A stretch of DNA of 64,000 nucleotides. Origin: an uncultured Bacilli bacterium (GTDB lineage Bacteria > Bacillota_I > Bacilli_A > RF39 > UBA660). This document shows, piece after piece, positions 1,227 to 58,650 of this stretch; the stretch's first letter is position 1; every line of letters starts with the position of its first letter. The notes below the pieces were generated by a model. It made no database searches. It was not told the origin of the DNA and worked only from the letters and a program-made list of their open reading frames with translations. The position numbers and the translations under genes were made by a program. The DNA lies in contig CAKORX010000001.1 in assembly GCA_934101645.1 (NCBI GenBank), forward strand, positions 81,051 through 145,050. Reading direction: 5' to 3'.

Positions 1227-3448
1227 TATATTTCCTCGTCTCTATATGTTTTCATCGCTGATGATTTAAATAATTTTCTTGAATATCTTAATGAAATAAG
1301 TAAGCTCATTACAAAGCAAACTAAATAAACTATTATATAATCTTTTAAAGTTAAATAATTAATCATATCACTTAAAGTCGGAGAATTTATAATATCTTTT
1401 GAAATTAAAACGATAAATGAAATAACTAAAATGTATGCAATATGATAAACAGTAAATAGTTCAATACTAATCATATTTTTTAACACTTTTTTCGTAGCTC
1501 CTAAAATACGTAAAGTTGCATAATAAACATTTCTAGATTTTTCAATTATTCTAATAACAAAATATGCGACGAAAAATAGTACTATAAATAAAAATGCCAC
1601 TGCAACTACTTTAAATATTTTCAAAACCTCAGAAACGCCATAATTTAAACTTACTTTAACATCTTTTATATATAATGCTTGATATTCACTTTTATCTAAA
1701 TATTTTTTTACACTTTGAATATTTTTTACATCATCTACAAATACGGATACTTGATAATTTCCTTTATTAAATAAACTATTATAATCATCATTTGATATAT
1801 ATATAACAAAGTTATTATTATCATAGTCTTTAATATTTACTAAACCATAAAAATTATTTTTCGTATAAACTTCTGATACATTTAATTTAACTGAATTTTC
1901 ATAATACTGATTTTTTACTTTTATAGAAAGTTCGTTATTAATGCAGTTACCATAATTACAATAATTATTTAATTGATATGGAATATAAGCATTACCTGGT
2001 TTTACATTCTCGTTAGGTCTAAATACTACATATATTTCTTTATTATTAAGTAGCATTTTTATATTACTATAATCAACATTTGCACAAGTTTTTATATTAT
2101 TTAAAAGCTTATCACTTGCATAAAATGTTTCATTTTCTGATAAACTATTTGTCAAAATAAGTCCAGTTACTTTAACATTTTCTACGCATGATGAAGCATT
2201 TTTTGAACTCGTAGAAAATAAATTATAATTAGTATTTAATATATCTTCTTTAGAGTTAGTTACATAGTAATTATTTTTATATATTTTCATTACTACTTCA
2301 TTATCATTTTCAGGCATTTTACCAATTATTTTTTCATTAATATCGCTGGCTTCTTTGAAAAAGCCATAAAACCAATAAGAGTTACTATTGTCTGTTAAAT
2401 AATATTCCTTGTCTAAAATAATATCATTCAAATTAACTTTTTTTACATGCTCTAATTTTTTTAGTTTTTCTATATCACTATCAGAAATATAACTATTATC
2501 TTTCTTTTTTAAAACAATTCTTTCATCAGATAAATCCCTAAAATAATAATTATAGCCTAATTTATTTGCCTCATATTCAGAAACTCTAATAGATGAATAT
2601 TCTCCGAAAAAAGCTAAAGTAATAAGTAAAAATACAATTAAAAGTAAGATAAATTTCATTGGAATGTTAAAAGTATTTCTTACACCAAGTCTAATTTTAT
2701 TAAAAAAGCTAATTCCTTTATACTCGTGAATAGTCAAAGTACTTTTATTATATTCTTTTAAAGTTATATCTTCCCTAACCTTACCATCACTCATCTCTAT
2801 TTTTCTCGTAGCATATTTTTCTACTTCATCATAATTATGAGTAACTATAATAACTAGTTTATCTTTTGCAACCTCAGATAAAATTCTTATAACGCTTTGA
2901 CTAGAACGACTATCAAGATTTCCCGTAGGTTCATCGGCAATAATAATTGGCACATCTTTTGCAAGTGCACGAGCAATAGCAACTCTTTGTTTTTGACCAC
3001 CAGATAAATGGGATACTTTTGTATTACGATATTTATACAAATCAACTTTTTTAATTAAATCTAGAATTTTTTTCTTTACATCTTTTTTCTTAAATCCATT
3101 TAAAAGAAGTACTAATTCAATATTTTGATATACTGTATAACTTGATACTAAATTAAATGATTGAAAGATATTTCCTATATAGCATTTACGATAATTTTCA
3201 ATATCCTCGCTACTATAATGGCTTGTTTCCTTGCCATTAATATACATTTCTCCTTCTTCATAAGTATCAAGGCCAGATAGTACATTTAAAAGTGTAGACT
3301 TTCCAGAACCACTTTCTCCGGTAATAACCACAAACTCTCCTAAAAAAAATTCAAGTGAAACTTTACTAAATCCCGAAGAAACCATTCCTTTGTTATAATA
3401 AAACTTGCTAACTTTATCAAGCTTTAAAATGGGTTTTTCTGTTTTCAT
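1226..3448 (-). CDS. ABC transporter ATP-binding protein with a C-terminal FtsX-like permease domain (MacB-like fusion)
   Basis: 740-aa ORF with Walker A GESGSGKST, signature LSGGQKQR and Walker B IIIADEPT. Its C-terminal half has a TM segment, a long extracytoplasmic domain and 3 further TM segments, typical of FtsX/MacB. Confidence 0.85.
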   Translation of the reverse strand: MKTEKPILKLDKVSKFYYNKGMVSSGFSKVSLEFFLGEFVVITGESGSGKSTLLNVLSGLDTYEEGEMYINGKETSHYSSEDIENYRKCYIGNIFQSFNLVSSYTVYQNIELVLLLNGFKKKDVKKKILDLIKKVDLYKYRNTKVSHLSGGQKQRVAIARALAKDVPIIIADEPTGNLDSRSSQSVIRILSEVAKDKLVIIVTHNYDEVEKYATRKIEMSDGKVREDITLKEYNKSTLTIHEYKGISFFNKIRLGVRNTFNIPMKFILLLIVFLLITLAFFGEYSSIRVSEYEANKLGYNYYFRDLSDERIVLKKKDNSYISDSDIEKLKKLEHVKKVNLNDIILDKEYYLTDNSNSYWFYGFFKEASDINEKIIGKMPENDNEVVMKIYKNNYYVTNSKEDILNTNYNLFSTSSKNASSCVENVKVTGLILTNSLSENETFYASDKLLNNIKTCANVDYSNIKMLLNNKEIYVVFRPNENVKPGNAYIPYQLNNYCNYGNCINNELSIKVKNQYYENSVKLNVSEVYTKNNFYGLVNIKDYDNNNFVIYISNDDYNSLFNKGNYQVSVFVDDVKNIQSVKKYLDKSEYQALYIKDVKVSLNYGVSEVLKIFKVVAVAFLFIVLFFVAYFVIRIIEKSRNVYYATLRILGATKKVLKNMISIELFTVYHIAYILVISFIVLISKDIINSPTLSDMINYLTLKDYIIVYLVCFVMSLLISLRYSRKLFKSSAMKTYRDEEI

Positions 3449-3535
3449 ATTTTACTCTCCTACCAAAATTATATTATAAAATACCATTTTATACAATTCA
3501 TTATACACTTGTTAAGTGACTTATAGATGACTATA

Positions 3536-3544
3536 TGATATAAT
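3536..3544 (+). promoter_or_regulatory. Candidate extended -10 promoter element (TGaTATAAT) for the sortase gene, which may be leaderless or have a very short leader
   Basis: TGATATAAT at 3536..3544 lies 10 nt upstream of the ATG at 3555. No good -35 is present at 17-bp spacing. Confidence 0.3.
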
Positions 3545-3554
3545 TTACTAGGAT

Positions 3555-4370
3555 ATGAAGAAAAGAAAGTTAAATAAAAAAAATTTATTTTTGCTTATAT
3601 TTTTTGTTTTAATGTTTTTTACTTTTATACTTAGTTTAGTAAAAATTTTTATGTGGGTAATAGATAATAAAAAAACTGATAAAATTATAAAAGTTGCTAG
3701 TAATATTACAGAAATTACAGAAACAAAAAGTGATAATGAAGTAATTATAGAAACGAAAAGCAAAACTAATGCTTATTTTGAATATATTAAAATGAATTTA
3801 ATTGATGTAGATCTTGATAAATTAAAAAAATATAACGAAGATACTGTGGGCTGGCTTAAAGTCGAAGGCACCAATATAAACTACCCTTTTGTTCAAACTG
3901 ATAATAATGAGGATTATTTAACTAAATCTTTTGATAAAACATTTAATTATGCTGGATGGATATTTTTAGATTATCGAAATAGTTATCTATCACTTGATAA
4001 AAATACAGTTATTTATGGACACGGAAGAGTAAATGGAACAATGTTTGGTTCTTTAAAAGATACATTAAGACCATCATGGCAAAATAATGAAGAAAACTAC
4101 ATAATAAGAATGTCTACAGAAAAAATTAAGACTATGTGGCAAATATTTAGTACTTATAAAATACCCACTACTAACGATTATATTAAAACAAGCTTTACTA
4201 GTGATGAAGAATTTATAAATTTTTTAGAAACTATAAAAAATCGTTCTGAATTTAATTTTAATGTAGACCTTCAAAGTAATGATAAAATTCTTACTCTTTC
4301 AACTTGTTATAATGATACAGAAAAAATGGTAGTTCATGCAAAATTAATTAAATATGAAATTAAGTCATAA
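3555..4370 (+). CDS. srtB: Class B sortase
   Basis: N-terminal TM. SrtB-type motif VGWLKVEGTNINYPFVQTDNNEDYL...GWIFLDYRN, His in VIYGHG, and active-site TLSTC near the C-terminus. Confidence 0.8.
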   Translation: MKKRKLNKKNLFLLIFFVLMFFTFILSLVKIFMWVIDNKKTDKIIKVASNITEITETKSDNEVIIETKSKTNAYFEYIKMNLIDVDLDKLKKYNEDTVGWLKVEGTNINYPFVQTDNNEDYLTKSFDKTFNYAGWIFLDYRNSYLSLDKNTVIYGHGRVNGTMFGSLKDTLRPSWQNNEENYIIRMSTEKIKTMWQIFSTYKIPTTNDYIKTSFTSDEEFINFLETIKNRSEFNFNVDLQSNDKILTLSTCYNDTEKMVVHAKLIKYEIKS

Positions 4371-4403
4371 AAAAAATGCGTAATATTTTACGCAATTTTT
4401 TTT
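4371..4403. terminator. Bidirectional intrinsic terminator between the convergent sortase and adhesin genes
   Basis: A7-TGCGTAA-tatt-TTACGCA-T9: a 7-bp stem with a 4-nt loop, flanked by an A-run and a T-run. Confidence 0.65.
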
Positions 4404-7400
4404 AGTTTTCTTTTTTTCTTAAAAGTACACTAGCACCTAAAGCATTTACTAAAGTAAGCATAATATAAATGCTTCCATTACTTGTAGTGTGTGGTGGAAG
4501 AGGTTCTTCATCTGGAACAATTACACCTTTTCCATCAGTTTTATAATAAACATTTATAATATTATCTTTTTCAGTAATCTTTAAAGGTAAGTTTTCTACC
4601 ATTTCAAGTACATAGTCAGTAGTAGATTTATCAGTATAACTTTCAATTACATCGCCATAGAAGGCATCAAATGTATCAGTTTTTGTTTCATCTAAAACTC
4701 TATCATAATAATATCTAACTTCGTAAGTATATTTACCTTTTACATAGTAAACATCAATTACATCGCCATCTTCGAAAGTTTCAGAAATAGCACTTGGATT
4801 TGTTTTATCAAATACAAAACCTACATATTTATTTGTTACGTTAATTTTGTTAATATCTACTTTTCCTGTAGTTTCTAATACCTGTACCATTTTAGTTACT
4901 TTTTCTGTATCACTAGTTTGTAAAACACCATCTTTATAGTAATTTACTGTATAGCTAATTTCTTTTGTTTGACTTTCATCAAGAATATAATATACTTTTA
5001 TAACTTCACCTGTTTTAATTTCATCAGGTATAATACTTGGATTAGATTCTTTGAATCTATATCCTACATATTTATCTTTAGTATTAATTTCAAATTTATT
5101 TACTGTTAAATTATCACTTTCTAATACTTGTACTGTTTTTGTTACTACTTGTGTATCTTTTGTTTGAAGTACACCATCTATGTAGTATTCAACTGTATAT
5201 GTTAATTCTTTTACTTTACTTTCATCAGTAACATAATAAACATCTATTACATCTCCATCTTCGAAAACTTCTGGAATAGAACTTGGATTAGTCTTATCAA
5301 ACTTATATCCAAAATATTTATTTGTTACATTGATTTTGCTAGTTTCTACTTTTCCTGTAGTTTCTAGAACTTGTACTGTCTTAGTTACTTTTTCTATATC
5401 ACTAGTTTGTAAAACACCATCTTTATAGTAATTTACTGTATAACTAATTTCTTTTGTTTGACTTTCATCAAGAATGTAATATACTTTTATAACTTCACCT
5501 GTTTTAATTTCATCAGGTATAATACTTGGATTAGATTCTTTGAATCTATATCCTACATATTTATCTTTAGTATTAATTTCAAATTTATTTACTGTTAAAT
5601 TATCACTTTCTAATACTTGTACTGTTTTTGTTACTACTTGTGTATCTTTTGTTTGAAGTACACCATCTATGTAGTATTCAACTGTATATGTTAATTCTTT
5701 TACTTTACTTTCATCAGTAACATAATAAACATCTATTACATCTCCATCTTCGAAAACTTCTGGAATAGAACTTGGATTAGTCTTATCAAACTTATATCCA
5801 AAATATTTATTTGTTACATTGATTTTGCTAGTTTCTACTTTTCCTGTAGTTTCTAGAACTTGTACTGTTTTTGTTATTTTTTCTATATCACTAGTTTGTA
5901 AAACACCATCTTTATAGTAATTTACTGTATAGCTAATTTCCTTTGTTTGACTTTCATCAAGAACATAGTAAACATCAATTACGTCTCCATTTTTGAAAGT
6001 TTCAGGAATAACACTAGGATTAGTTTTATCAAATTTATAACCAACATATTTGTTTGTTACATTAATTTTACTAATGTCTACTTTTCCTGTAGTTTCTAAA
6101 ACTTGTATTGTCTTAGTTACTTTTTCTGTATCACTAGTTTGTAAAACACCATCTTTATAGTAATTTACTGTATAACTAATTTTTTTTGTTTGAGTTTCAT
6201 CTGCAACATAATAAACTTTTATTACGTTTTCTTTTTCAGAACTTATGGCAGAAGTTTTATCTGGAGTAGCTTTATCAAATTTATAACCATATTTTGTATT
6301 AGCTTTAATTTTTTCATCAGTTACACCAAATTCTTTACCTTTTGCAAGTGTGCCTGTTTCTGTTAAATCTGCATCTTTAACATTATTATAATAATATTCG
6401 ATAGTATAATCGTATTTATCTACTTCCCAATATACTTCAGGATTTTCATCACAAGTAATAGTTTTTTCATTACCTTGTGAATCAGTATAACTTAAAGTAA
6501 ATCCAGCATTTGTGGCATACCAACCATCATCAGTAATTTTGTCTTCATCAATTGTAATATCAAATGAGAATACTTTACCTTTTTCTGTAATGTCAAATTT
6601 TTCACTTGTATAAGTTTTGCCTTGAGCGTCTGTCATTACAAATTTTGCACCAATATTATCAGTTAAAGTTGCATTAGTACCAGCATCAGCTTTACCTATT
6701 ATAGTGGCAATATCAGTAAATTTATTTACAATTGTTGTAGGATCTGATAAATATACATGATCTGCACCTGAAGCTACTTCACTTAGTATTGTACCATTGT
6801 AATCATATCCAATAGCAAATACTTCAGCGCTTTTTTGAACTGTTTTAGCCATTTCTTTTGTCTTGGCTTCAGTAGTAGCGTCCATGTATGAGCCTGGACC
6901 TTGTGTATAACCGTCTTCATCATAATATAATGTTGGTTCACCATCACTTATTACAACAACATATTTAATAGCGTCTTTTTTTACATTTGATGCTGTTAAT
7001 AATTTATTTGCTTCATAAAGTCCAGCATGTAAGTTTGTTCCACCCTTTGGTGTTCCAAATTTTACATTAGAGAAATCTTTATTATCGAAATCTCTTAAAA
7101 CTTTAGCATCATTATAGGCATTATCAAATATTCCTAAAAAACCATCTTCATCAGCAAATGTTACAAGAGCAATCTTTGCGTTTGGTAATTTTTTATGTAA
7201 TGTTGAAGCAAATGTTTTTGCACCATTAACAGCGCTTGTCCATTTTTCATCTTTAGAGCAATTATAACTATTACACATAGAATTAGATTTATCAAGAACT
7301 ACAACAGCATAAACATCTTTTTTATTTGAAGTTTCTGTTTTAACACTTTTACCTTTTACTTCAAAGGTAACATTGTATTTACCCTCTACATCAGTTTTAG

Positions 7401-7593
7401 ATACTGTTTTAGTAACTTGCACATCACCATCTTCAGCTAAACTACCTTTAGTTACAGTAACACTTTTATTACTAATTTGATTACCTAATCTTAAATCACC
7501 TTTCTGTTCTTTATATTCTGCAAAAACCATAGTTGAAACTACTACTGCAACAAGAACAATTGCACTAGCAAAAAAATATTTTAGTTTTTTCAT
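4402..7593 (-). CDS. Cell-wall-anchored adhesin with a signal peptide, a vWA domain with MIDAS motif, tandem MucBP-like repeats and a C-terminal sorting signal
   Basis: 1063 aa. Signal peptide MKKLKYFFASAIVLVAVVVSTMVFA. DxSxS MIDAS motif in VVVLDKSNSMC. Eight to nine units of ~81 aa with the pattern YTVxYYxDGVLQT...NKYxGYKF...VYYV. The C-terminus is PLPPHTTSNG followed by a hydrophobic stretch and RKKEN, a noncanonical sortase signal. Confidence 0.8.
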   Translation of the reverse strand: MKKLKYFFASAIVLVAVVVSTMVFAEYKEQKGDLRLGNQISNKSVTVTKGSLAEDGDVQVTKTVSKTDVEGKYNVTFEVKGKSVKTETSNKKDVYAVVVLDKSNSMCNSYNCSKDEKWTSAVNGAKTFASTLHKKLPNAKIALVTFADEDGFLGIFDNAYNDAKVLRDFDNKDFSNVKFGTPKGGTNLHAGLYEANKLLTASNVKKDAIKYVVVISDGEPTLYYDEDGYTQGPGSYMDATTEAKTKEMAKTVQKSAEVFAIGYDYNGTILSEVASGADHVYLSDPTTIVNKFTDIATIIGKADAGTNATLTDNIGAKFVMTDAQGKTYTSEKFDITEKGKVFSFDITIDEDKITDDGWYATNAGFTLSYTDSQGNEKTITCDENPEVYWEVDKYDYTIEYYYNNVKDADLTETGTLAKGKEFGVTDEKIKANTKYGYKFDKATPDKTSAISSEKENVIKVYYVADETQTKKISYTVNYYKDGVLQTSDTEKVTKTIQVLETTGKVDISKINVTNKYVGYKFDKTNPSVIPETFKNGDVIDVYYVLDESQTKEISYTVNYYKDGVLQTSDIEKITKTVQVLETTGKVETSKINVTNKYFGYKFDKTNPSSIPEVFEDGDVIDVYYVTDESKVKELTYTVEYYIDGVLQTKDTQVVTKTVQVLESDNLTVNKFEINTKDKYVGYRFKESNPSIIPDEIKTGEVIKVYYILDESQTKEISYTVNYYKDGVLQTSDIEKVTKTVQVLETTGKVETSKINVTNKYFGYKFDKTNPSSIPEVFEDGDVIDVYYVTDESKVKELTYTVEYYIDGVLQTKDTQVVTKTVQVLESDNLTVNKFEINTKDKYVGYRFKESNPSIIPDEIKTGEVIKVYYILDESQTKEISYTVNYYKDGVLQTSDTEKVTKMVQVLETTGKVDINKINVTNKYVGFVFDKTNPSAISETFEDGDVIDVYYVKGKYTYEVRYYYDRVLDETKTDTFDAFYGDVIESYTDKSTTDYVLEMVENLPLKITEKDNIINVYYKTDGKGVIVPDEEPLPPHTTSNGSIYIMLTLVNALGASVLLRKKEN
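4720..6180. repeat. In-frame tandem repeats of about 243 bp, organised as a 489-bp higher-order unit, inside the adhesin gene
   Basis: 4962..5450 and 5451..5939 are near-identical at nucleotide level. For example, the same 60-mers recur at 5110 and 5598, and at 5221 and 5709. Two further single units lie at 4720..4962 and 5940..6180. Confidence 0.85.
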
Positions 7594-7745: not shown

Positions 7746-8450
7746 TTATTTAATTCTATATGGATTACCTAAACTTCCACTTCCAATAAGTTCAATGCTA
7801 GTATCCAGATTCAAGAGCGGACGGACCGAGCCAAGACTGCCGACGAAGATGTCGCCGCCGCCGTTGCCATCCGAACTGACATCGAAAGCGCTGCTGCCAT
7901 TAAGAGAACCCGGCGAAAGAGTCCATTCGAGTCCAGCCGAATAATCATTGCCAGAAACATTGTCCCAAAATGTTTTATCAAATTTTTTATTATATAACCA
8001 ATTTTGTGTTGAACACTTTTCCGTATTTACATAACTTGGAACTGTATCATCATTTGCCCAGCTTACCACACTTCTATCACAATCGTTTGCCATTACTCCA
8101 TACATATAATCGCTTGGATACATTAATCCTACTTTTGCATATGTATATGTTGGATTCCCCTCATAAACAACGCCATATTTTTCGCTATTATTAAATATTT
8201 GGGCTTGTGGCCAATATTCATTATATTTTCCTGTACTAAGGTCTAGTGAATTTAATGACCATCTTGTACTTAGTACTTTATCAATATGATTATAACTATT
8301 TAAGCTTGTTAAATATGTTCCATTTAATAGAGCCTTAAGTGATGAATTATTCCAATTATTCTTTCTATTTGTATCCCATGCTATACCACTTGATGTGTAA
8401 TTTGTAGATTTAATTATCCTTATTACTGGCTGAAGTTTTGTGTTTGTTTC
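7746..8450. repeat. Roughly 700-bp near-identical direct repeat, copy 1 of 2, covering the 3' halves of the tandem paralog genes
   Basis: 7750..~8450 matches 9563..~10263 at an offset of 1813 bp. Only a few substitutions near the stop codon, and divergence rises beyond ~8450. Confidence 0.85.
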
Positions 8451-9356
8451 GCTTGTTCCAACCTTTTCATCAAATACACCAATTATTCTAAAAGTATTAT
8501 CTTCGGCACATGTACCAGATGAATTATTATCTAAACATATATAATTATCTGGATCTTTGCCTTCATACCTATAACCGTTCTCATTTGCTACTAGATACTT
8601 TGTGGATGAATCTTGACTTGATGTTTTTAATCCTTCATTTGCTATACTTTTTATAAAGTCTTCGGCATCTGGGGTTACTGCTTCACATTTTAAATTCTCA
8701 GCATATATTTTACCAGTAAAGGCTTTACCCGCAAGTTGAGACTGATTTGCATTTAAATTATAATATCTAGCAGTTATTTTAAATGTTTGAGTACTTTGAG
8801 TACCACCATTATTTGTTATTCTTGCACCAGTTGCAAGTTTTATTTTTGCACCAGTTGTACTAGTTTTAGCTATCCATCCTTTTGAAGTATTATAATCAAT
8901 GTTTGCCTCTCCACCAAAAGGATTATTACTTCCTGTCGGGCCCTCAACTTCAAAAGTTATTTCTTTATTTGCATTACTTGTTTTAGTTGTAGGACTTTGT
9001 CCATATACATTTGAACTTGAATTATATTCAAATGCTATATCATATGTACACCTTGTACTTATATTAGTTGTTCCTAATAAAGATACATTAATTGTTGCTG
9101 TATTTTCTGCAACAGCAACTGTATTATTTGAATCAAAATTAGTCATATTTGCTCCAGGTACTTGTAAATTTAATGTTGAACTACTTGTGGTAAATGATGA
9201 ATTACCCGGAGAGACAGCATTAATATTTACTACTACATTGCCATTTAAGTTTGTATTAAATGATCCGAAAAAAGCAAATGTTGCGGATACTACTACAACA
9301 ACTAATATTAATAATGCGATAATTGAATAAATATTTATCTTTATATTATTTTTCAT
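7746..9356 (-). CDS. Secreted or surface protein of unknown function, paralog 1. It has an N-terminal signal/anchor and is Cys-containing.
   Basis: 536-aa ORF. The N-terminal hydrophobic segment is followed by SATFAFFGSFN. The C-terminal ~300 aa are identical to those of the downstream paralog. Confidence 0.7.
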   Translation of the reverse strand: MKNNIKINIYSIIALLILVVVVVSATFAFFGSFNTNLNGNVVVNINAVSPGNSSFTTSSSTLNLQVPGANMTNFDSNNTVAVAENTATINVSLLGTTNISTRCTYDIAFEYNSSSNVYGQSPTTKTSNANKEITFEVEGPTGSNNPFGGEANIDYNTSKGWIAKTSTTGAKIKLATGARITNNGGTQSTQTFKITARYYNLNANQSQLAGKAFTGKIYAENLKCEAVTPDAEDFIKSIANEGLKTSSQDSSTKYLVANENGYRYEGKDPDNYICLDNNSSGTCAEDNTFRIIGVFDEKVGTSETNTKLQPVIRIIKSTNYTSSGIAWDTNRKNNWNNSSLKALLNGTYLTSLNSYNHIDKVLSTRWSLNSLDLSTGKYNEYWPQAQIFNNSEKYGVVYEGNPTYTYAKVGLMYPSDYMYGVMANDCDRSVVSWANDDTVPSYVNTEKCSTQNWLYNKKFDKTFWDNVSGNDYSAGLEWTLSPGSLNGSSAFDVSSDGNGGGDIFVGSLGSVRPLLNLDTSIELIGSGSLGNPYRIK

Positions 9357-9533
9357 ACTACCCTTTTCTCTTTCATAAATACGATATCCATTATTTCAAA
9401 AACTATTACATTTAGAAATAACTCTATCTTATTTTTGTACCATTATAAATATATTTTATCATACTTTCATATTAAATAATATAAATTTTCATTAAATCAC
9501 ATATTTTTTTATAAATGTTTAACTTAATTTTAT

Positions 9534-9558
9534 AAAAAAAGCACATAATGTGCTAAAA
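9534..9558 (-). terminator. Intrinsic terminator downstream of paralog 2
   Basis: The minus strand reads GCACA-tta-TGTGC followed by T7, with an A7 run on the other side. Confidence 0.6.
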
Positions 9559-10263
9559 TTATTTAATTCTATACGGATTGCTTAAACTTCCACTTCCAAT
9601 AAGTTCAATGCTAGTATCCAGATTCAAGAGCGGACGGACCGAGCCAAGACTGCCGACGAAGATGTCGCCGCCGCCGTTGCCATCCGAACTGACATCGAAA
9701 GCGCTGCTGCCATTAAGAGAACCCGGCGAAAGAGTCCATTCGAGTCCAGCCGAATAATCATTGCCAGAAACATTGTCCCAAAATGTTTTATCAAATTTTT
9801 TATTATATAACCAATTTTGTGTTGAACACTTTTCCGTATTTACATAACTTGGAACTGTATCATCATTTGCCCAGCTTACCACACTTCTATCACAATCGTT
9901 TGCCATTACTCCATACATATAATCGCTTGGATACATTAATCCTACTTTTGCATATGTATATGTTGGATTCCCCTCATAAACAACGCCATATTTTTCGCTA
10001 TTATTAAATATTTGGGCTTGTGGCCAATATTCATTATATTTTCCTGTACTAAGGTCTAGTGAATTTAATGACCATCTTGTACTTAGTACTTTATCAATAT
10101 GATTATAACTATTTAAGCTTGTTAAATATGTTCCATTTAATAGAGCCTTAAGTGATGAATTATTCCAATTATTCTTTCTATTTGTATCCCATACTATACC
10201 ACTTGATGTGTAATTTGTAGATTTAATTATCCTTATTACTGGCTGAAGTTTTGCGTTTGTTTC
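9559..10263. repeat. Roughly 700-bp near-identical direct repeat, copy 2 of 2
   Basis: See copy 1. It includes the same GC-rich 150-bp patch at 9614..9763. Confidence 0.85.
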
Positions 10264-11169
10264 GCTTGTTCCAACCTTTTCATCAAATACACCAATTATT
10301 CTAAATGTATTATCTTCAGCACATGTACCAGATGAATTATTATCTAAACATATATAATTATCTGGATCTTTGCCTTCGTATCTATAACCGTTCTCATTTG
10401 CAACAATATATTTTGTAGATGTATCTTGACTTGATGTTTTTTCACCTTCAGCAGCTATATTTTTTATAAAGTCTTCGGCATCTGGTGTTACACCTTCACA
10501 AACTGGATTTTCTGCATAAACTTTTCCAACGAAATTTTTACTATCAAGTTGTGATTGTGACACCTCTAAATTATAGTATCTTGCGGTAATCTTCCAACTT
10601 TGAGTGTTTGGAGTGCTACTATTATTTGTAATTCTTGCACCAGTTGCAAGTTTTATTTTTGCTCCTTTTGTGCTAGTTTTAGCTATCCATCCTTTTGCTA
10701 TGTCATAATCAATATTTGTTTCTGCTCCAAAAGGATTAGTTTCACCGATTGGACCTTCAACTTCAAAAGTTATTTCTTTATCTGCACCACTTGTTTTAAT
10801 TGTTGGACTTTGTCCATATACACTTGAATTTAAATCGTATTCAAAAACTATATCATAAGTACATCTTGTGCTAAGTTCTGATGATCCCGTTAAAGTTACA
10901 TTTAATATTGCACTATTTTCTGCTGCTGCTACCCTATTATTTGCAACAATTTCACTCATATTTCCAGAGCGAACAAACAAATTTAAGATTGAACTATCTG
11001 ATACAAGTGATGAACTTCCTGGTGATGCTGCATTTATATTTACCGCTATATTACCATTTAAATTTTCATTAAATGAACCAAAATATGCAAATGCCGCAGA
11101 TACTACTATAATAAGTAACATTACTATTGCAAAAATTGAATATATATTTACCTTTACTTTATCTTTCAT
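9559..11169 (-). CDS. Secreted or surface protein of unknown function, paralog 2
   Basis: 536-aa ORF. The N-terminal half is ~60% identical to paralog 1 and the C-terminal half is identical. N-terminal motif SAAFAYFGSFN follows the hydrophobic segment. Confidence 0.7.
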   Translation of the reverse strand: MKDKVKVNIYSIFAIVMLLIIVVSAAFAYFGSFNENLNGNIAVNINAASPGSSSLVSDSSILNLFVRSGNMSEIVANNRVAAAENSAILNVTLTGSSELSTRCTYDIVFEYDLNSSVYGQSPTIKTSGADKEITFEVEGPIGETNPFGAETNIDYDIAKGWIAKTSTKGAKIKLATGARITNNSSTPNTQSWKITARYYNLEVSQSQLDSKNFVGKVYAENPVCEGVTPDAEDFIKNIAAEGEKTSSQDTSTKYIVANENGYRYEGKDPDNYICLDNNSSGTCAEDNTFRIIGVFDEKVGTSETNAKLQPVIRIIKSTNYTSSGIVWDTNRKNNWNNSSLKALLNGTYLTSLNSYNHIDKVLSTRWSLNSLDLSTGKYNEYWPQAQIFNNSEKYGVVYEGNPTYTYAKVGLMYPSDYMYGVMANDCDRSVVSWANDDTVPSYVNTEKCSTQNWLYNKKFDKTFWDNVSGNDYSAGLEWTLSPGSLNGSSAFDVSSDGNGGGDIFVGSLGSVRPLLNLDTSIELIGSGSLSNPYRIK

Positions 11170-11207: not shown

Positions 11208-11229
11208 AAAAAAAGCACAAAATGTGCTA
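11208..11229 (-). terminator. Intrinsic terminator after sortase gene 2. It overlaps the sortase TAG stop and lies only ~40 bp upstream of paralog 2.
   Basis: The minus strand reads GCACA-ttt-TGTGC followed by T7. The same stem sequence occurs in the terminator at 9534..9558. Confidence 0.55.
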
Positions 11230-11952
11230 AATAATTTCTTTTGCTATAACAAGCATATATTTATTTTTATATTTACTATATTCTTTTAAGTTACTACATG
11301 TCTGAATTATTAATAAATTATCATTTGCATTTACATTTATACCTGTATCATAAAATGATTTATTTTTAAGTTTTTGATAATGTGCTTCTTTTTCTTCTTT
11401 AGAAGTATAATCTATTTTCATATAATCCCAATCTTTAGTTTCTACGTATGCAGAAAAGATTTGATATTTTCTTACTTTTTTAGTAGTAGAAATGTAAACA
11501 TACTGATGCTCTTTATAATAATCTTCATTTACATAATTTTCGATAATCATTATTGGAAGCATGTAATTCGGAGAACTATGACCAAATATTAAAAGTTTTT
11601 CACTTTCATCAATATCAACTCTATAATCTAAAAAGATTGAACCATTTATATTATATGTTTTATCTGGTAAATGATTTAAATAATAACTATTATCTTTTCC
11701 CTGCATTATAGCGGTATTAAAATCGGTATCATTAATTTGAATGGTTCCTACTACATCATCATTATTATATTCCTTTTTTAATGAAGTAATTTTTTCTTCA
11801 TATACTTCTTCTTTATTATCAGGTAAATCTTTTGTTACTAAAATAAAATTATCATATTTACCAACGTTATAATACTCTAAAACAAAATATACTGATAAAA
11901 CTGTAAGCACTATAACGGGAATTATTACTAATAGTTTATTAATAATTTTCAT
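11227..11952 (-). CDS. srtB: Class B sortase
   Basis: N-terminal TM. Motif VVGTIQINDTDFNTAIMQGKDNSYYLNH...NGSIFLDYR, His in LIFGHS, and active-site LIIQTC. Confidence 0.8.
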   Translation of the reverse strand: MKIINKLLVIIPVIVLTVLSVYFVLEYYNVGKYDNFILVTKDLPDNKEEVYEEKITSLKKEYNNDDVVGTIQINDTDFNTAIMQGKDNSYYLNHLPDKTYNINGSIFLDYRVDIDESEKLLIFGHSSPNYMLPIMIIENYVNEDYYKEHQYVYISTTKKVRKYQIFSAYVETKDWDYMKIDYTSKEEKEAHYQKLKNKSFYDTGINVNANDNLLIIQTCSNLKEYSKYKNKYMLVIAKEII

Positions 11953-55882: not shown

Positions 55883-55907
55883 TAATTCTAAATTTAATCA
55901 GCTTTTA
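55870..55907. terminator. Bidirectional intrinsic terminator between the convergent integrase and valS genes
   Basis: A7-AGCTGAT-(13-nt loop)-ATCAGCT-TTTT. The stem overlaps both stop codons. Confidence 0.5.
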
Positions 55908-58395
55908 AAATGGAAAGTTTTTCTTTTTCTTCTTTTAATTTATTTTGTTCTTCTTCAACTATATTTTTCGGAGCTCTACTTACAAATCCTTCATTACTAA
56001 GTAATTTTTCTCTTTTAGCAATCGACATTTCTAAAAATTCAATTTCTTTTTGCTTATTTTCACTGTTTTTTGCGTTATCTATTTTAAATAACAATTTAGC
56101 AAAGTTTGAATTATATTCGACACCTTCTGATAAACCTAAATTAACATTTTTTAACTTAAGCATATTTTTGTAAAATTCTTCATCATATAGATACTTAATG
56201 TTTACTTCATCATTGTTAGTAATTTTATTTTCTGCTTTAAAATTACGGATTGCAACTATATCACTTAAAATATCATTTACAAGTTTAATGTTAAAAACTT
56301 CACTCTTATTATATTTTGGATAAGAACTATTCATTATAGATTTACTTTCTTTTATATTAAGATTTTGATATATTTCCTCAGTTACAAACGGAATAAATGG
56401 ATGAAGCATTTTGATTATACCAGTTAAAACTTTAACTAATATACTTTTTGATGTAGTATTTAAGAAAATTTTGCTTATTTCAATATACCAAGAACAATAA
56501 TCATCCCAAATAAATGTATAAAGTTCATTAAATGCATTATGAAATTCATATTTATCCATATATTTAGTGACTTCTTTAATAGTTTTATTATATTTAGTTA
56601 AAATCCATTTATCATATATATTATATTCCTCAAAAGAAAGCTCATTTAAATCTTGAGTGTTAAGAATAACAAATCTTGAAGCATTCCATAACTTATTAAT
56701 AAAATTCCAAGATGATGCAACTTTTTCTTCATCATATCTGAGGTCCATTCCTGGAGCACTATTAGTAGTTAAAAATAGTCTTAATGAATCACAACCAAAT
56801 TTATCAATTACCTCAATTGGATTTACTCCATTTCCTAGACTTTTACTCATTTTTCTGCCTTGTTTATCTCTAATAAGTCCATGAATTAAGCAATCCTTAA
56901 AAGGTCTTTCTCCCATGAATTCTAGTGATTGAAAAGTCATCCTATTTACCCAAAATGGAATAATGTCATATCCTGTAACTAGTACATCATTTGGAAAATA
57001 TCTTTCTAAATCTGAAGTTTTTTCTGGCCAACCTAATGTTGAAAAAGGCCATAATGCAGAAGAAAACCAAGTATCTAAAACATCTTTATCTTGAACCCAG
57101 CCTTCACCAGCAGGAGCACTCTCGCCAACATAAATTTCATCACCTTTATACCAAGCTGGAATTCTATGACCCCACCAAAGCTGTCTTGAAATGCACCAAT
57201 CATAAGTTATTTCCATCCAATGATTCATAGTCTTTTCATATCTTCTTGGAACAAAATTAACCTTTTTGTTTTTATCTTTTTGATTTTCAAGTACTCTATC
57301 AGCTAAAGGGCGCATTTTTACAAACCATTGGCTTGATAAGTAAGGTTCAATCATTACCCCTGTACGTTCTGAATGACCAACATTATGTGTTATTTCTTCT
57401 TTTTTTATTAATAAACCTAATTTTTCTAAATCTTCAGTTATTTTTTCTCTTGCAACTTCACGAGTAAGTCCTTCATATTTACCTGCTTTATCGTTCATTG
57501 TAGCATCAGGATTAATACATATAATTTGCTCTAAATTGTGTCTAAGTCCTACCTCATAATCGTTAGGGTCATGTGCTGGAGTAATTTTAACACAACCAGT
57601 TCCGAATTCAGGATCTGCATGCATATCTGCAATAATTGGTATCTTTCTTGATGTAAGTGGTAATAAAACATTTTTACCAATTAGATCTTTGTATCTTTCA
57701 TCGCTAGGATTAACCGCTACTGCTGTATCTCCGAAAAGTGTCTCAGGTCTTGTAGTAGCAACATCTAAATATTTATCTTCTCCATCAATATAATATTTTA
57801 TATGATAAAAATAGCCTTTAACGTCTTTATAAATTACTTCTTCATTTGAAAGTGCTGTTTGTGCCTTAGGATCCCAATTTATTATTCTATATCCCCTATA
57901 AATAAGGCCTTTATTATATAAATCAATAAATACTTTATTTACAGCCTTACTAAGTCCTTCGTCTAAAGTAAATCTTTCTCTAGTATAATCTAAAGCAAGA
58001 CCTAACTTTGCCCATTGTTTATGAATATTTTCAGCATATTCATCTTTCCATGCCCAAGCATATTTAAGCCAATCTTCCCTATCTAAACTACGAGGATTAA
58101 TTCCCATATTAGTTAATTTTTCATCAACTTTTGCTTGTGTTGCAATACCGGCATGATCCATTCCAGGAACCCATAATGTATCAAATCCACTTAACTTTTT
58201 ATATCTTATAATTATATCTTGAAGTGTAGTATCCCATGCATGTCCTATATGTAAATTACCCGTTACATTAGGGGGAGGTATAACTATTGAAAATGGTTTC
58301 TTGTCTTTATCATTGCTTGCTAAAAATGTTTTATTGTTTAACCAATAATCATACTTTCCTTCCTCAACTTTTTTAAAATCATATTTTGTTTCCAT
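55894..58395 (-). CDS. valS: Valine--tRNA ligase
   Basis: HIGH motif (NLHIGHAWD) and KMSKS. The C-terminus is coiled-coil. The likely true start is ATG at 58395 (METKYDF) with a GGAGGAA RBS. The ORF-track start at 58449 is a GTG inside the T-box. Confidence 0.9.
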
Positions 58396-58650
58396 ATTTC
58401 CTCCAACAAAAAAAGGTAGTACAAAAGGGTGCAAAGTGCACGGTACCACCTTTATATTTAACTCTTTATCCTTAATGCGGAATTACAGCCTATCCTATTT
58501 ACTTAGATAAGCAACTTGCAAGCTACTTCATTTAACCAGTGTTTAAGAAAAGCTTTCAGCTAATAACTTTTCCTCTCTAATAAAATAGTTAAATTACTCC
58601 TCTTGTTCTTCGTTTTTATGTTCATAGTATAACAAATTCTTTTCTTTATT
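58396..58650 (-). ncRNA. T-box riboswitch leader of valS
   Basis: The minus-strand RNA carries the T-box sequence AAAGGUGGUACCGUG (template 58436..58450). A terminator follows: GGUGGUAC...GUACUACC then U7, directly before the RBS. Confidence 0.65.

Follow-up and report, generated by a model that had tools for sequence, protein, structure and literature searches.

GC-rich islands in paired lectin-fold protein genes of an uncultured Bacilli bacterium as probable variable regions of a diversity-generating retroelement

In a 64,000-nucleotide stretch of the genome of an uncultured Bacilli bacterium (GTDB lineage RF39, UBA660; assembly GCA_934101645.1, contig CAKORX010000001.1, positions 81,051 to 145,050; hereafter the window), two tandem paralogous genes each carry a short GC-rich patch near the 3' end. 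We conclude that these patches are very probably (probability of about 0.88) the variable regions (VRs) of target genes of a diversity-generating retroelement (DGR), which is an established type of system. DGRs employ a dedicated reverse transcriptase (RT) that, helped by the protein Avd, copies the RNA of a template repeat (TR) and misincorporates opposite template adenines only, and the cDNA made in this way is substituted for the VR, which lies at the 3' end of a gene encoding a C-type-lectin-fold binding domain. The codon usage that makes the patches look foreign is the product of adenine avoidance, of AAY codons turned into NNY codons, and of boundary segments rich in GC. In the library searched, no paper joined "diversity-generating retroelement" and "RF39".

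Composition and allele pattern of the GC-rich patches

The two patches, at 7801-7950 and 9614-9763, are 100% identical to each other and each is 56% GC, which places them 5.5 standard deviations above the mean of 150-bp segments in the window (27.2%, sd 5.2); the highest value reached by any other 150-bp stretch is 45%. At the 100-bp scale only 7759-7970 and 9571-9783 exceed 48% GC anywhere in the 64 kb, with a peak of 63%, and the VR stands roughly 30 GC points above the host genome. Both patches are on the minus strand, about 60-210 nt ahead of the stop codons of two tandem 536-aa open reading frames (ORFs), and both encode the peptide SSDGNGGGDIFVGSLGSVRPLLNLDT. The first-pass annotation of this DNA had described two identical GC-rich patches with this peptide and a foreign-looking codon usage, and had proposed recomputing GC in sliding windows; the description is confirmed, and GC on recomputation is far from uniform. 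Codon usage is indeed aberrant, for none of the 37 codons of the 111-nt core ends in A, compared with 199 of 457 in the remaining gene, and the coding strand is 11.7% adenine in the core but 40.8% adenine elsewhere in the gene.

Composition and allele comparisons together place the VR core of the first gene (paralog A) at 7815..7925 on the minus strand, within 7801-7950 and corresponding to gene nt 1432-1542, running from TGGACTCTTTCGCCG to TCGGTCCGTCCGCTC. The core of the second gene (paralog B), at 9628..9738 on the same strand, has the same sequence. Inside it, the diversified part of paralog A spans 25 codons at 7836..7910 (minus strand, GGT through AGT) and is matched by 9649..9723 (minus) in paralog B. 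It reads GGT TCT CTT AAT GGC AGC AGC GCT TTC GAT GTC AGT TCG GAT GGC AAC GGC GGC GGC GAC ATC TTC followed by a GVC-type codon and so on to AGT, so that NNY codons are interspersed with adenine-free scaffold codons. A GC-rich 3' boundary element, GGCTCGGTCCGTCCGCTC (7815..7832, minus), is invariant across all alleles, and by analogy its position would be equivalent to the GC-rich start of the initiation of mutagenic homing (IMH) site of known DGRs (PMC5758913).

Alignment of the closest homologs revealed the same flanks, YSAGLEWTLSP on one side and LGSVRPLLNLDTSIELI on the other, around a wholly different segment. At least 13 VR alleles occur among members of the 90%-identity protein clusters and the related loci that we retrieved, all in proteins at least 90% identical to those of the window, and the template xSxxxxxAFxVxSxGxVxxxxVxxL fits eight of them. 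Pairwise nucleotide divergence is 17-36% in gene nt 1432-1539 versus 0-5% in the surrounding 700 nt. At the DNA level we compared five 24-codon alleles, from loci L006, L085, L092, L093 and L094. Among their 72 sites 32 are variable, and these fall on codon positions 1, 2 and 3 in the proportion 14/17/1, with G as the commonest base. The 40 invariant sites comprise 16 T, 16 C, 8 G and not a single A. Lysine, glutamate, glutamine, methionine and tryptophan (K, E, Q, M and W) are absent from all 144 variable cells, whereas they account for 15% of residues elsewhere in the protein (P ~4e-11). NNY codons encode none of these five amino acids, nor a stop. Invariant sites free of adenine, together with a repertoire confined to NNY, are, as judged indirectly from the VRs themselves, the footprint expected of AAY template codons rewritten at their adenines.

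In the mechanism that we propose, the constant residues would be encoded without adenine in the TR, and the codons TCT/TCG, GCT, TTC, GTC, GGC, CTT, CGT, CCG, CTC and CTG would appear because an adenine-free encoding is needed in a genome of 27% GC. The AAY codons of the TR would in turn become NNY in the VR, giving GGC, AGC, GAC, ATC, TTC, GTC and AAC, and GC-rich constant segments would flank the mutagenised stretch as they do in other DGRs.

The window allele, GSLNGSSAFDVSSDGNGGGDIFVGSL, is shared by the two paralogs and by four more assemblies, which come from other samples, and it is the commonest of all (21 of 51 sequences, counting the two window proteins and 49 database proteins). In other strains the two paralogs hold different alleles. 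Alleles also recur at different loci: three cluster types share allele 1, and alleles 2 and 4 each appear in two or three of them. There is also a third paralog, which has a VR of this type and occupies another chromosomal locus (L092 10001-11602; L007 280-1887); it adjoins a small Flg_new-domain gene and a phosphoglucomutase gene, with T2SSF and prepilin-peptidase genes about 8-10 kb off.

Two copies depart from this composition. In L008 (10790-11107) and in gene 1 of L094 (8176-9798) the homologous segment is AT-rich and encodes a different, non-diversified peptide that contains K, E and Q, and the GC-rich form is therefore specific to diversified, presumably DGR-written, alleles. The L008 copy, from the closest GTDB representative (CAKONC010000003.1), is a single broken gene at the same syntenic locus (10001-11107; UvrB, sortase and onward), split into a 228-aa N-terminal ORF and a 105-aa C-terminal fragment beside a UvrB nearly identical to that of the window. 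Orthologues encoding this very peptide with AT-rich codons had been named beforehand as a sign that the patch is recent and neutral. Copies with AT-rich codons do exist, but their peptide differs, so neutrality of the patch is not implied.

Related cassettes and the search for a cognate element

Complete DGR cassettes adjoin members of the same protein family in related genomes. When all loci were searched against one another for imperfect repeats whose mismatches are biased towards adenine, TR/VR pairs emerged next to homologs in L028, L031, L036 and L044; these are 120-133 bp long and differ by 21-26 mismatches, 81-95% of which fall at TR adenines. L089 shares their target-Avd-TR-RT arrangement and falls within the same ranges of mismatch number and adenine share. 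The Avd of these cassettes matches NF033474, PF22296 and phrog_3206, and the RT is a 440-aa RVT_1 protein with the motifs IGNVCSQ and YMDD. Each VR is GC-richer than its own TR (41-48% versus 32-36%) and holds half as much adenine, from which it follows that adenine mutagenesis itself raises GC in an AT-rich host. A GC island at the same 3' position is present in many family members, some of them distant and some with an adjacent TR.

The closest link to the window is L096 (Logan contig SRR29133971_134245), a homolog of 72% identity whose VR has the same flanks and is 61% GC. Directly after it come a GC hairpin, a small ORF, Avd and an RT, of which the contig includes the first 140 residues before it ends; the close relatives of this RT are all fragments, of 103-242 aa, among them the RT of L097, truncated by decay, and that of L099, split by an intron. 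L097 contains a decayed DGR (8032-8942) in which the RT ORF after Avd breaks off at 187 aa and is joined to a 3' TR remnant (AAC CTC AAC AAC AAC AAC GCG AAC AAC GGC TAT GCG GCC AGA). Its two targets, at 6081-7421 and 9302-10861, flank the cassette and have identical VRs, a parallel to the pair in the window. In L099 (1831-4744; GCA_949296535.1, CASFPM010000037.1), whose cassette is ordered target-TR(~840-960)-orf116-Avd-RT, a group II intron splits the DGR RT gene exactly within YMDD; the Rfam matches are RF02005 (2565-2789) and RF00029 (4375-4448), and the intron encodes an RT of its own in an ORF at 3043-4362.

Several observations weigh against assigning the window patches to a DGR. One is that its template and enzymes did not turn up. 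Neither a TR nor a third copy of the patch was found in the 64-kb window by blastn at word size 7, and a fast Fourier transform scan of the window and the ~100 related loci, in which template adenines were allowed to mismatch, returned the VRs themselves only. No TR, RT or Avd lies in the adjoining 22 kb on the left side either, a stretch with ABC transporters, tRNA-Glu and the start of a prophage. Within the window, a scan for the RT motifs IGNxxSQ/YxDD had no hit, and tblastn of the L028 RT, Avd, enolase and PFOR gave no match. Pattern scans of larger collections were also negative for a TR: the 3' anchor yielded one chance match in IMG/VR, to a high-GC phage; a longer 3' pattern, which fixed a variable TTC and would miss a 25-codon TR, had no match in IMG/VR or the GTDB representatives; the 5' anchor recovered one extra VR allele (L085) and two chance matches from JGI metagenomes; and the 5' anchor with two mid-VR skeleton patterns gave chance matches only in IMG/VR. 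The TRs of the L028, L044, L036, L031, L089 and L099 cassettes do not match the window VR. There is no convincing hairpin or inverted repeat 3' of the VR, the DNA fold of the 3' end scoring z = +0.39; downstream inverted repeats are reported for only 34% of DGRs (PMC5758913).

The alleles themselves supply the remaining difficulties. Their VR length between anchors ranges from 25 to 30 codons, so a single TR does not suffice. A few differences lie outside adenine-derived sites, such as one third-position T/C. The identity of GSLNGSSAFDVSSDGNGGGDIFVGSL across paralogs and assemblies leaves no trace of ongoing diversification in this strain, and the recurrence of alleles in different paralogs and many samples is unlike a highly active DGR.

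Since no TR, RT or Avd was found in the window or the 22 kb to its left, the cassette must be remote and trans-acting elsewhere in the genome, or lost; a remote DGR acting in trans is a documented arrangement (PMC5758913). We infer that a trans-acting TR-Avd-RT cassette is, or once was, present elsewhere in this genome. The cognate element would act, or would have acted, in trans on the two genes and the third paralog. The allele is apparently fixed in this strain, so the element may be lost or inactive and the window allele may be frozen.

Identity between the paralogs reaches well beyond the VR. A near-identical tract of about 0.8 kb on the minus strand (7767..8576 versus 9580-10389) takes in the entire 3' half of the genes, with perfect identity over 610 bp (7770-8379 versus its partner) extending past the patch itself, while the 5' halves are ~75-85% identical. 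This tract marks concerted evolution that has affected the C-terminal domain in its entirety and not the VR alone, whether through gene conversion or through a segmental duplication of recent date. For the identity of the two patch copies the simplest explanation is that gene conversion has acted on the 0.8-kb 3' halves. Given homogenised 3' halves and the recurrence of alleles in different paralogs, conversion probably moves alleles that a DGR has made.

A two-tier scheme would accommodate these observations, although we put it forward only tentatively and consider it rather doubtful as a whole. In this gut lineage of reduced genomes, one trans-acting DGR, possibly mobile or often lost, would write VRs in dispersed paralogs; gene conversion of the 0.8-kb 3' halves would spread the alleles; and orphan, frozen VRs such as the window pair would remain once the cassette decays, as its relatives have done in L097 (RT truncated) and L099 (RT split by an intron). 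The range of 25-30 codons could then stem from several TR variants in the population or from non-canonical retrohoming indels.

Competing explanations and known systems

Of the other accounts, recombinational antigenic variation without a retroelement, in which alleles are shuffled among paralogs or silent cassettes in the style of mycoplasmas or Neisseria and GC-richness is a by-product (for example of GC-biased gene conversion), is the least improbable, and even so we judge it very improbable. It draws on the homogenisation of ~0.8 kb of the paralog 3' halves, the identical VR alleles in paralogs at different loci, and the differing allele lengths. Conversion moves alleles, however; it does not make an adenine-free scaffold with an NNY pattern, and the 64 kb contain no silent cassettes. 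GC-biased gene conversion as the source of the island was rejected, because beyond the patch the rest of the converted tract is AT-rich. Gene conversion probably acts on top of DGR diversification and not in its place.

The first-pass annotation had raised the possibility of a horizontally acquired or mosaic segment. On that reading, 150 bp of a homologous gene would have come from an organism of higher GC, recombined into the paralogs and then been copied between them, which would account for the sharp compositional boundary and the two identical copies. The AT-rich sequence at the same place in L008 and in gene 1 of L094 also means that the locus is mosaic between strains, and to that extent the suggestion stands. 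The higher-GC donor does not: blastn of the patch, the kind of search recommended for finding one, had no match in GenBank phages, and pattern scans of viral, metagenome and genome collections produced no donor either. A single event, moreover, cannot yield at least 13 alleles, differences concentrated at codon positions 1 and 2, invariant sites without adenine, and residues restricted to NNY, an allele pattern unlike recombination with a foreign gene; nor would it place GC islands at this one position in so many distant members of the family, some with adjacent TRs. We regard foreign import as extremely unlikely.

The same annotation also proposed that a nucleic-acid-level element, whether a structured RNA, a regulatory element or a site-specific recombination site, constrains the coding sequence. 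The unusual composition and the invariance of the GGCTCGGTCCGTCCGC segment are in keeping with this, and the homing signal (IMH) of a DGR is itself such an element, so the proposal is partly subsumed by the DGR reading: the sequence is dictated at the nucleic-acid level and not by host codon preference. The structured-RNA version, though, was rejected. The minus-strand transcript folds with no more energy than its dinucleotide shuffles (z = -0.27), folding the 3' end as DNA gives nothing better, and Rfam has no match in the patch region. Neither pairing supported by covariation across the alleles nor a conserved structure in the transcript is seen. Conservation in orthologues had been suggested as a check, and the patch proved to be the least conserved part of the gene, the most variable among strains, which is the opposite of a conserved structure. 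As a separate explanation, a constrained element of this kind is scarcely credible.

A DGR origin remains our preferred explanation, and among the systems closest to it are DGRs with non-adjacent or remote targets. In the Treponema denticola DGR, with TvpA and several remote targets, and in the lineage-4 cellular DGRs (PMC5758913), the VR is likewise at the 3' end of a gene with a C-type-lectin/FGE-like fold, NNY codons are set among adenine-free scaffold codons between GC-rich constant ends, and several paralogous targets per genome have no cassette beside them. The present case differs in its host, a very low-GC uncultured "Bacilli bacterium" whose relatives are named "Mycoplasma sp. CAG:472", in that the target side alone is seen, in a VR some 30 GC points richer than the genome, and in having alleles that are common to paralogs and unequal in length. 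The cassettes of related gut Bacilli (L028, L044, L036, L031, L089 and L099) share with the window proteins the N-terminal domain family (44-48% identity), the C-terminal motif logic W-x-x-S-P ... G-x-R-P, and a VR that is GC-richer than TR and genome, but there each element's own Avd-TR-RT adjoins the targets, and the TRs consist mostly of AAT codons.

The prototype, the Mtd/Brt/Avd system of Bordetella phage BPP-1, has in common with the window the adenine-specific rewriting of a C-terminal C-type-lectin-fold surface and a GC-rich element at the 3' end of the VR; it differs in that a phage carries it, its target lies next to it, and its IMH is followed by an inverted repeat rich in GC, whereas no hairpin was seen in the window. 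DUF6273 domains have been reported as DGR targets with a C-lectin fold in the tentaclins of gut phages (PMC10743442). These resemble the window proteins in having a DUF6273-like domain (below threshold here, as described in the next section) and a C-lectin-like fold in which the VR makes up beta-hairpins at the surface. Tentaclins, however, are phage tail proteins, while the window genes are chromosomal and encode membrane-anchored proteins with a C-terminal VR at a sortase/VWA surface locus.

What first appeared as a foreign-DNA anomaly thus suggests a rule: in very AT-rich genomes VRs form short islands, high in GC and poor in adenine, at the 3' ends of genes, and they do so whether the retroelement is near, distant or gone. 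Because they stand out in this way, DGR targets could be found by composition alone. The analysis further singles out a large unannotated family, whose members are membrane-anchored and have a lectin fold, as the diversified surface molecules of uncultured gut Bacilli of low GC; each genome has several such targets, which probably take part in interactions with hosts or phages. Alleles common to paralogs, together with decayed cassettes, offer a natural system for following the fate of DGR targets after loss of the element.

The paralog genes and their neighbourhood

Paralog A (7746..9356, minus strand) encodes a 536-aa protein with an N-terminal membrane anchor, a conserved beta-rich N-domain common to the large family, and a C-terminal C-type-lectin-like (DUF6273-like) domain with the VR at its end. 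Paralog B (9559..11169, minus, 536 aa) has the same architecture. Neither protein has a match in Pfam or NCBIfam at default thresholds. The DUF6273 profile (PF19789) aligns over positions 24-171 of 172 with 17.6 bits against a gathering cut-off of 23.5 (E = 0.0038), and the C-terminal domain is likely to be a remote relative of DUF6273 rather than a formal member. The protein family has more than 2,700 members, nearly all from metagenome-assembled genomes of uncultured low-GC gut organisms of the "Bacilli bacterium" or "Mycoplasma sp. CAG:472" type, each of which holds many paralogs.

A structure model of the full-length protein was weak (pLDDT 61) and uninformative in Foldseek, so we used a model of the C-terminal part (residues 243-536, built with 104 homologs), which reached a pLDDT of 80 and a pTM of 0.83. 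The modelled domain has a C-type-lectin-like fold resembling solved DGR variable proteins, and the VR is predicted to form surface beta-hairpins on its exposed face. A second, smaller peak of divergence, both between strains and between paralogs, is found at gene nt 901-930 (window ~8427-8456 and 10240-10269); it amounts to 25% in one 30-nt bin, is not GC-rich, and lies within the otherwise conserved 3' half.

Upstream of the paralogs is a sortase-family gene (11227..11952, minus; Pfam Sortase) and downstream a gene for a 1063-aa repeat protein with a VWA domain (4402..7593, minus), followed by a second sortase gene at 3555-4370 on the plus strand. With two sortase-family genes and a VWA-domain protein adjoining the paralogs, this is a cell-surface, or pilus-like, locus. 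The repeats of the VWA gene are 243/489-bp tandem units at 4742-6225 (minus; 6.1 and 2.5 copies, with matches of up to 94%) that encode the repeated domains of the 1063-aa protein. The protein is 900 aa long in L003, L005 and L094, so repeat copy number is polymorphic.

To the left of the window, L002 15916-22223 carries a tRNA-Glu(ctc) followed by genes for a phage integrase, helix-turn-helix repressors, DnaB_2, SSB and AAA_24, a gene content that marks a prophage integrated ~2.5 kb left of window position 1. Near the other end of the window, a T-box leader (RF00230, 95.8 bits) at 58422-58619 on the minus strand lies upstream of an 851-aa ORF at 55894..58449.
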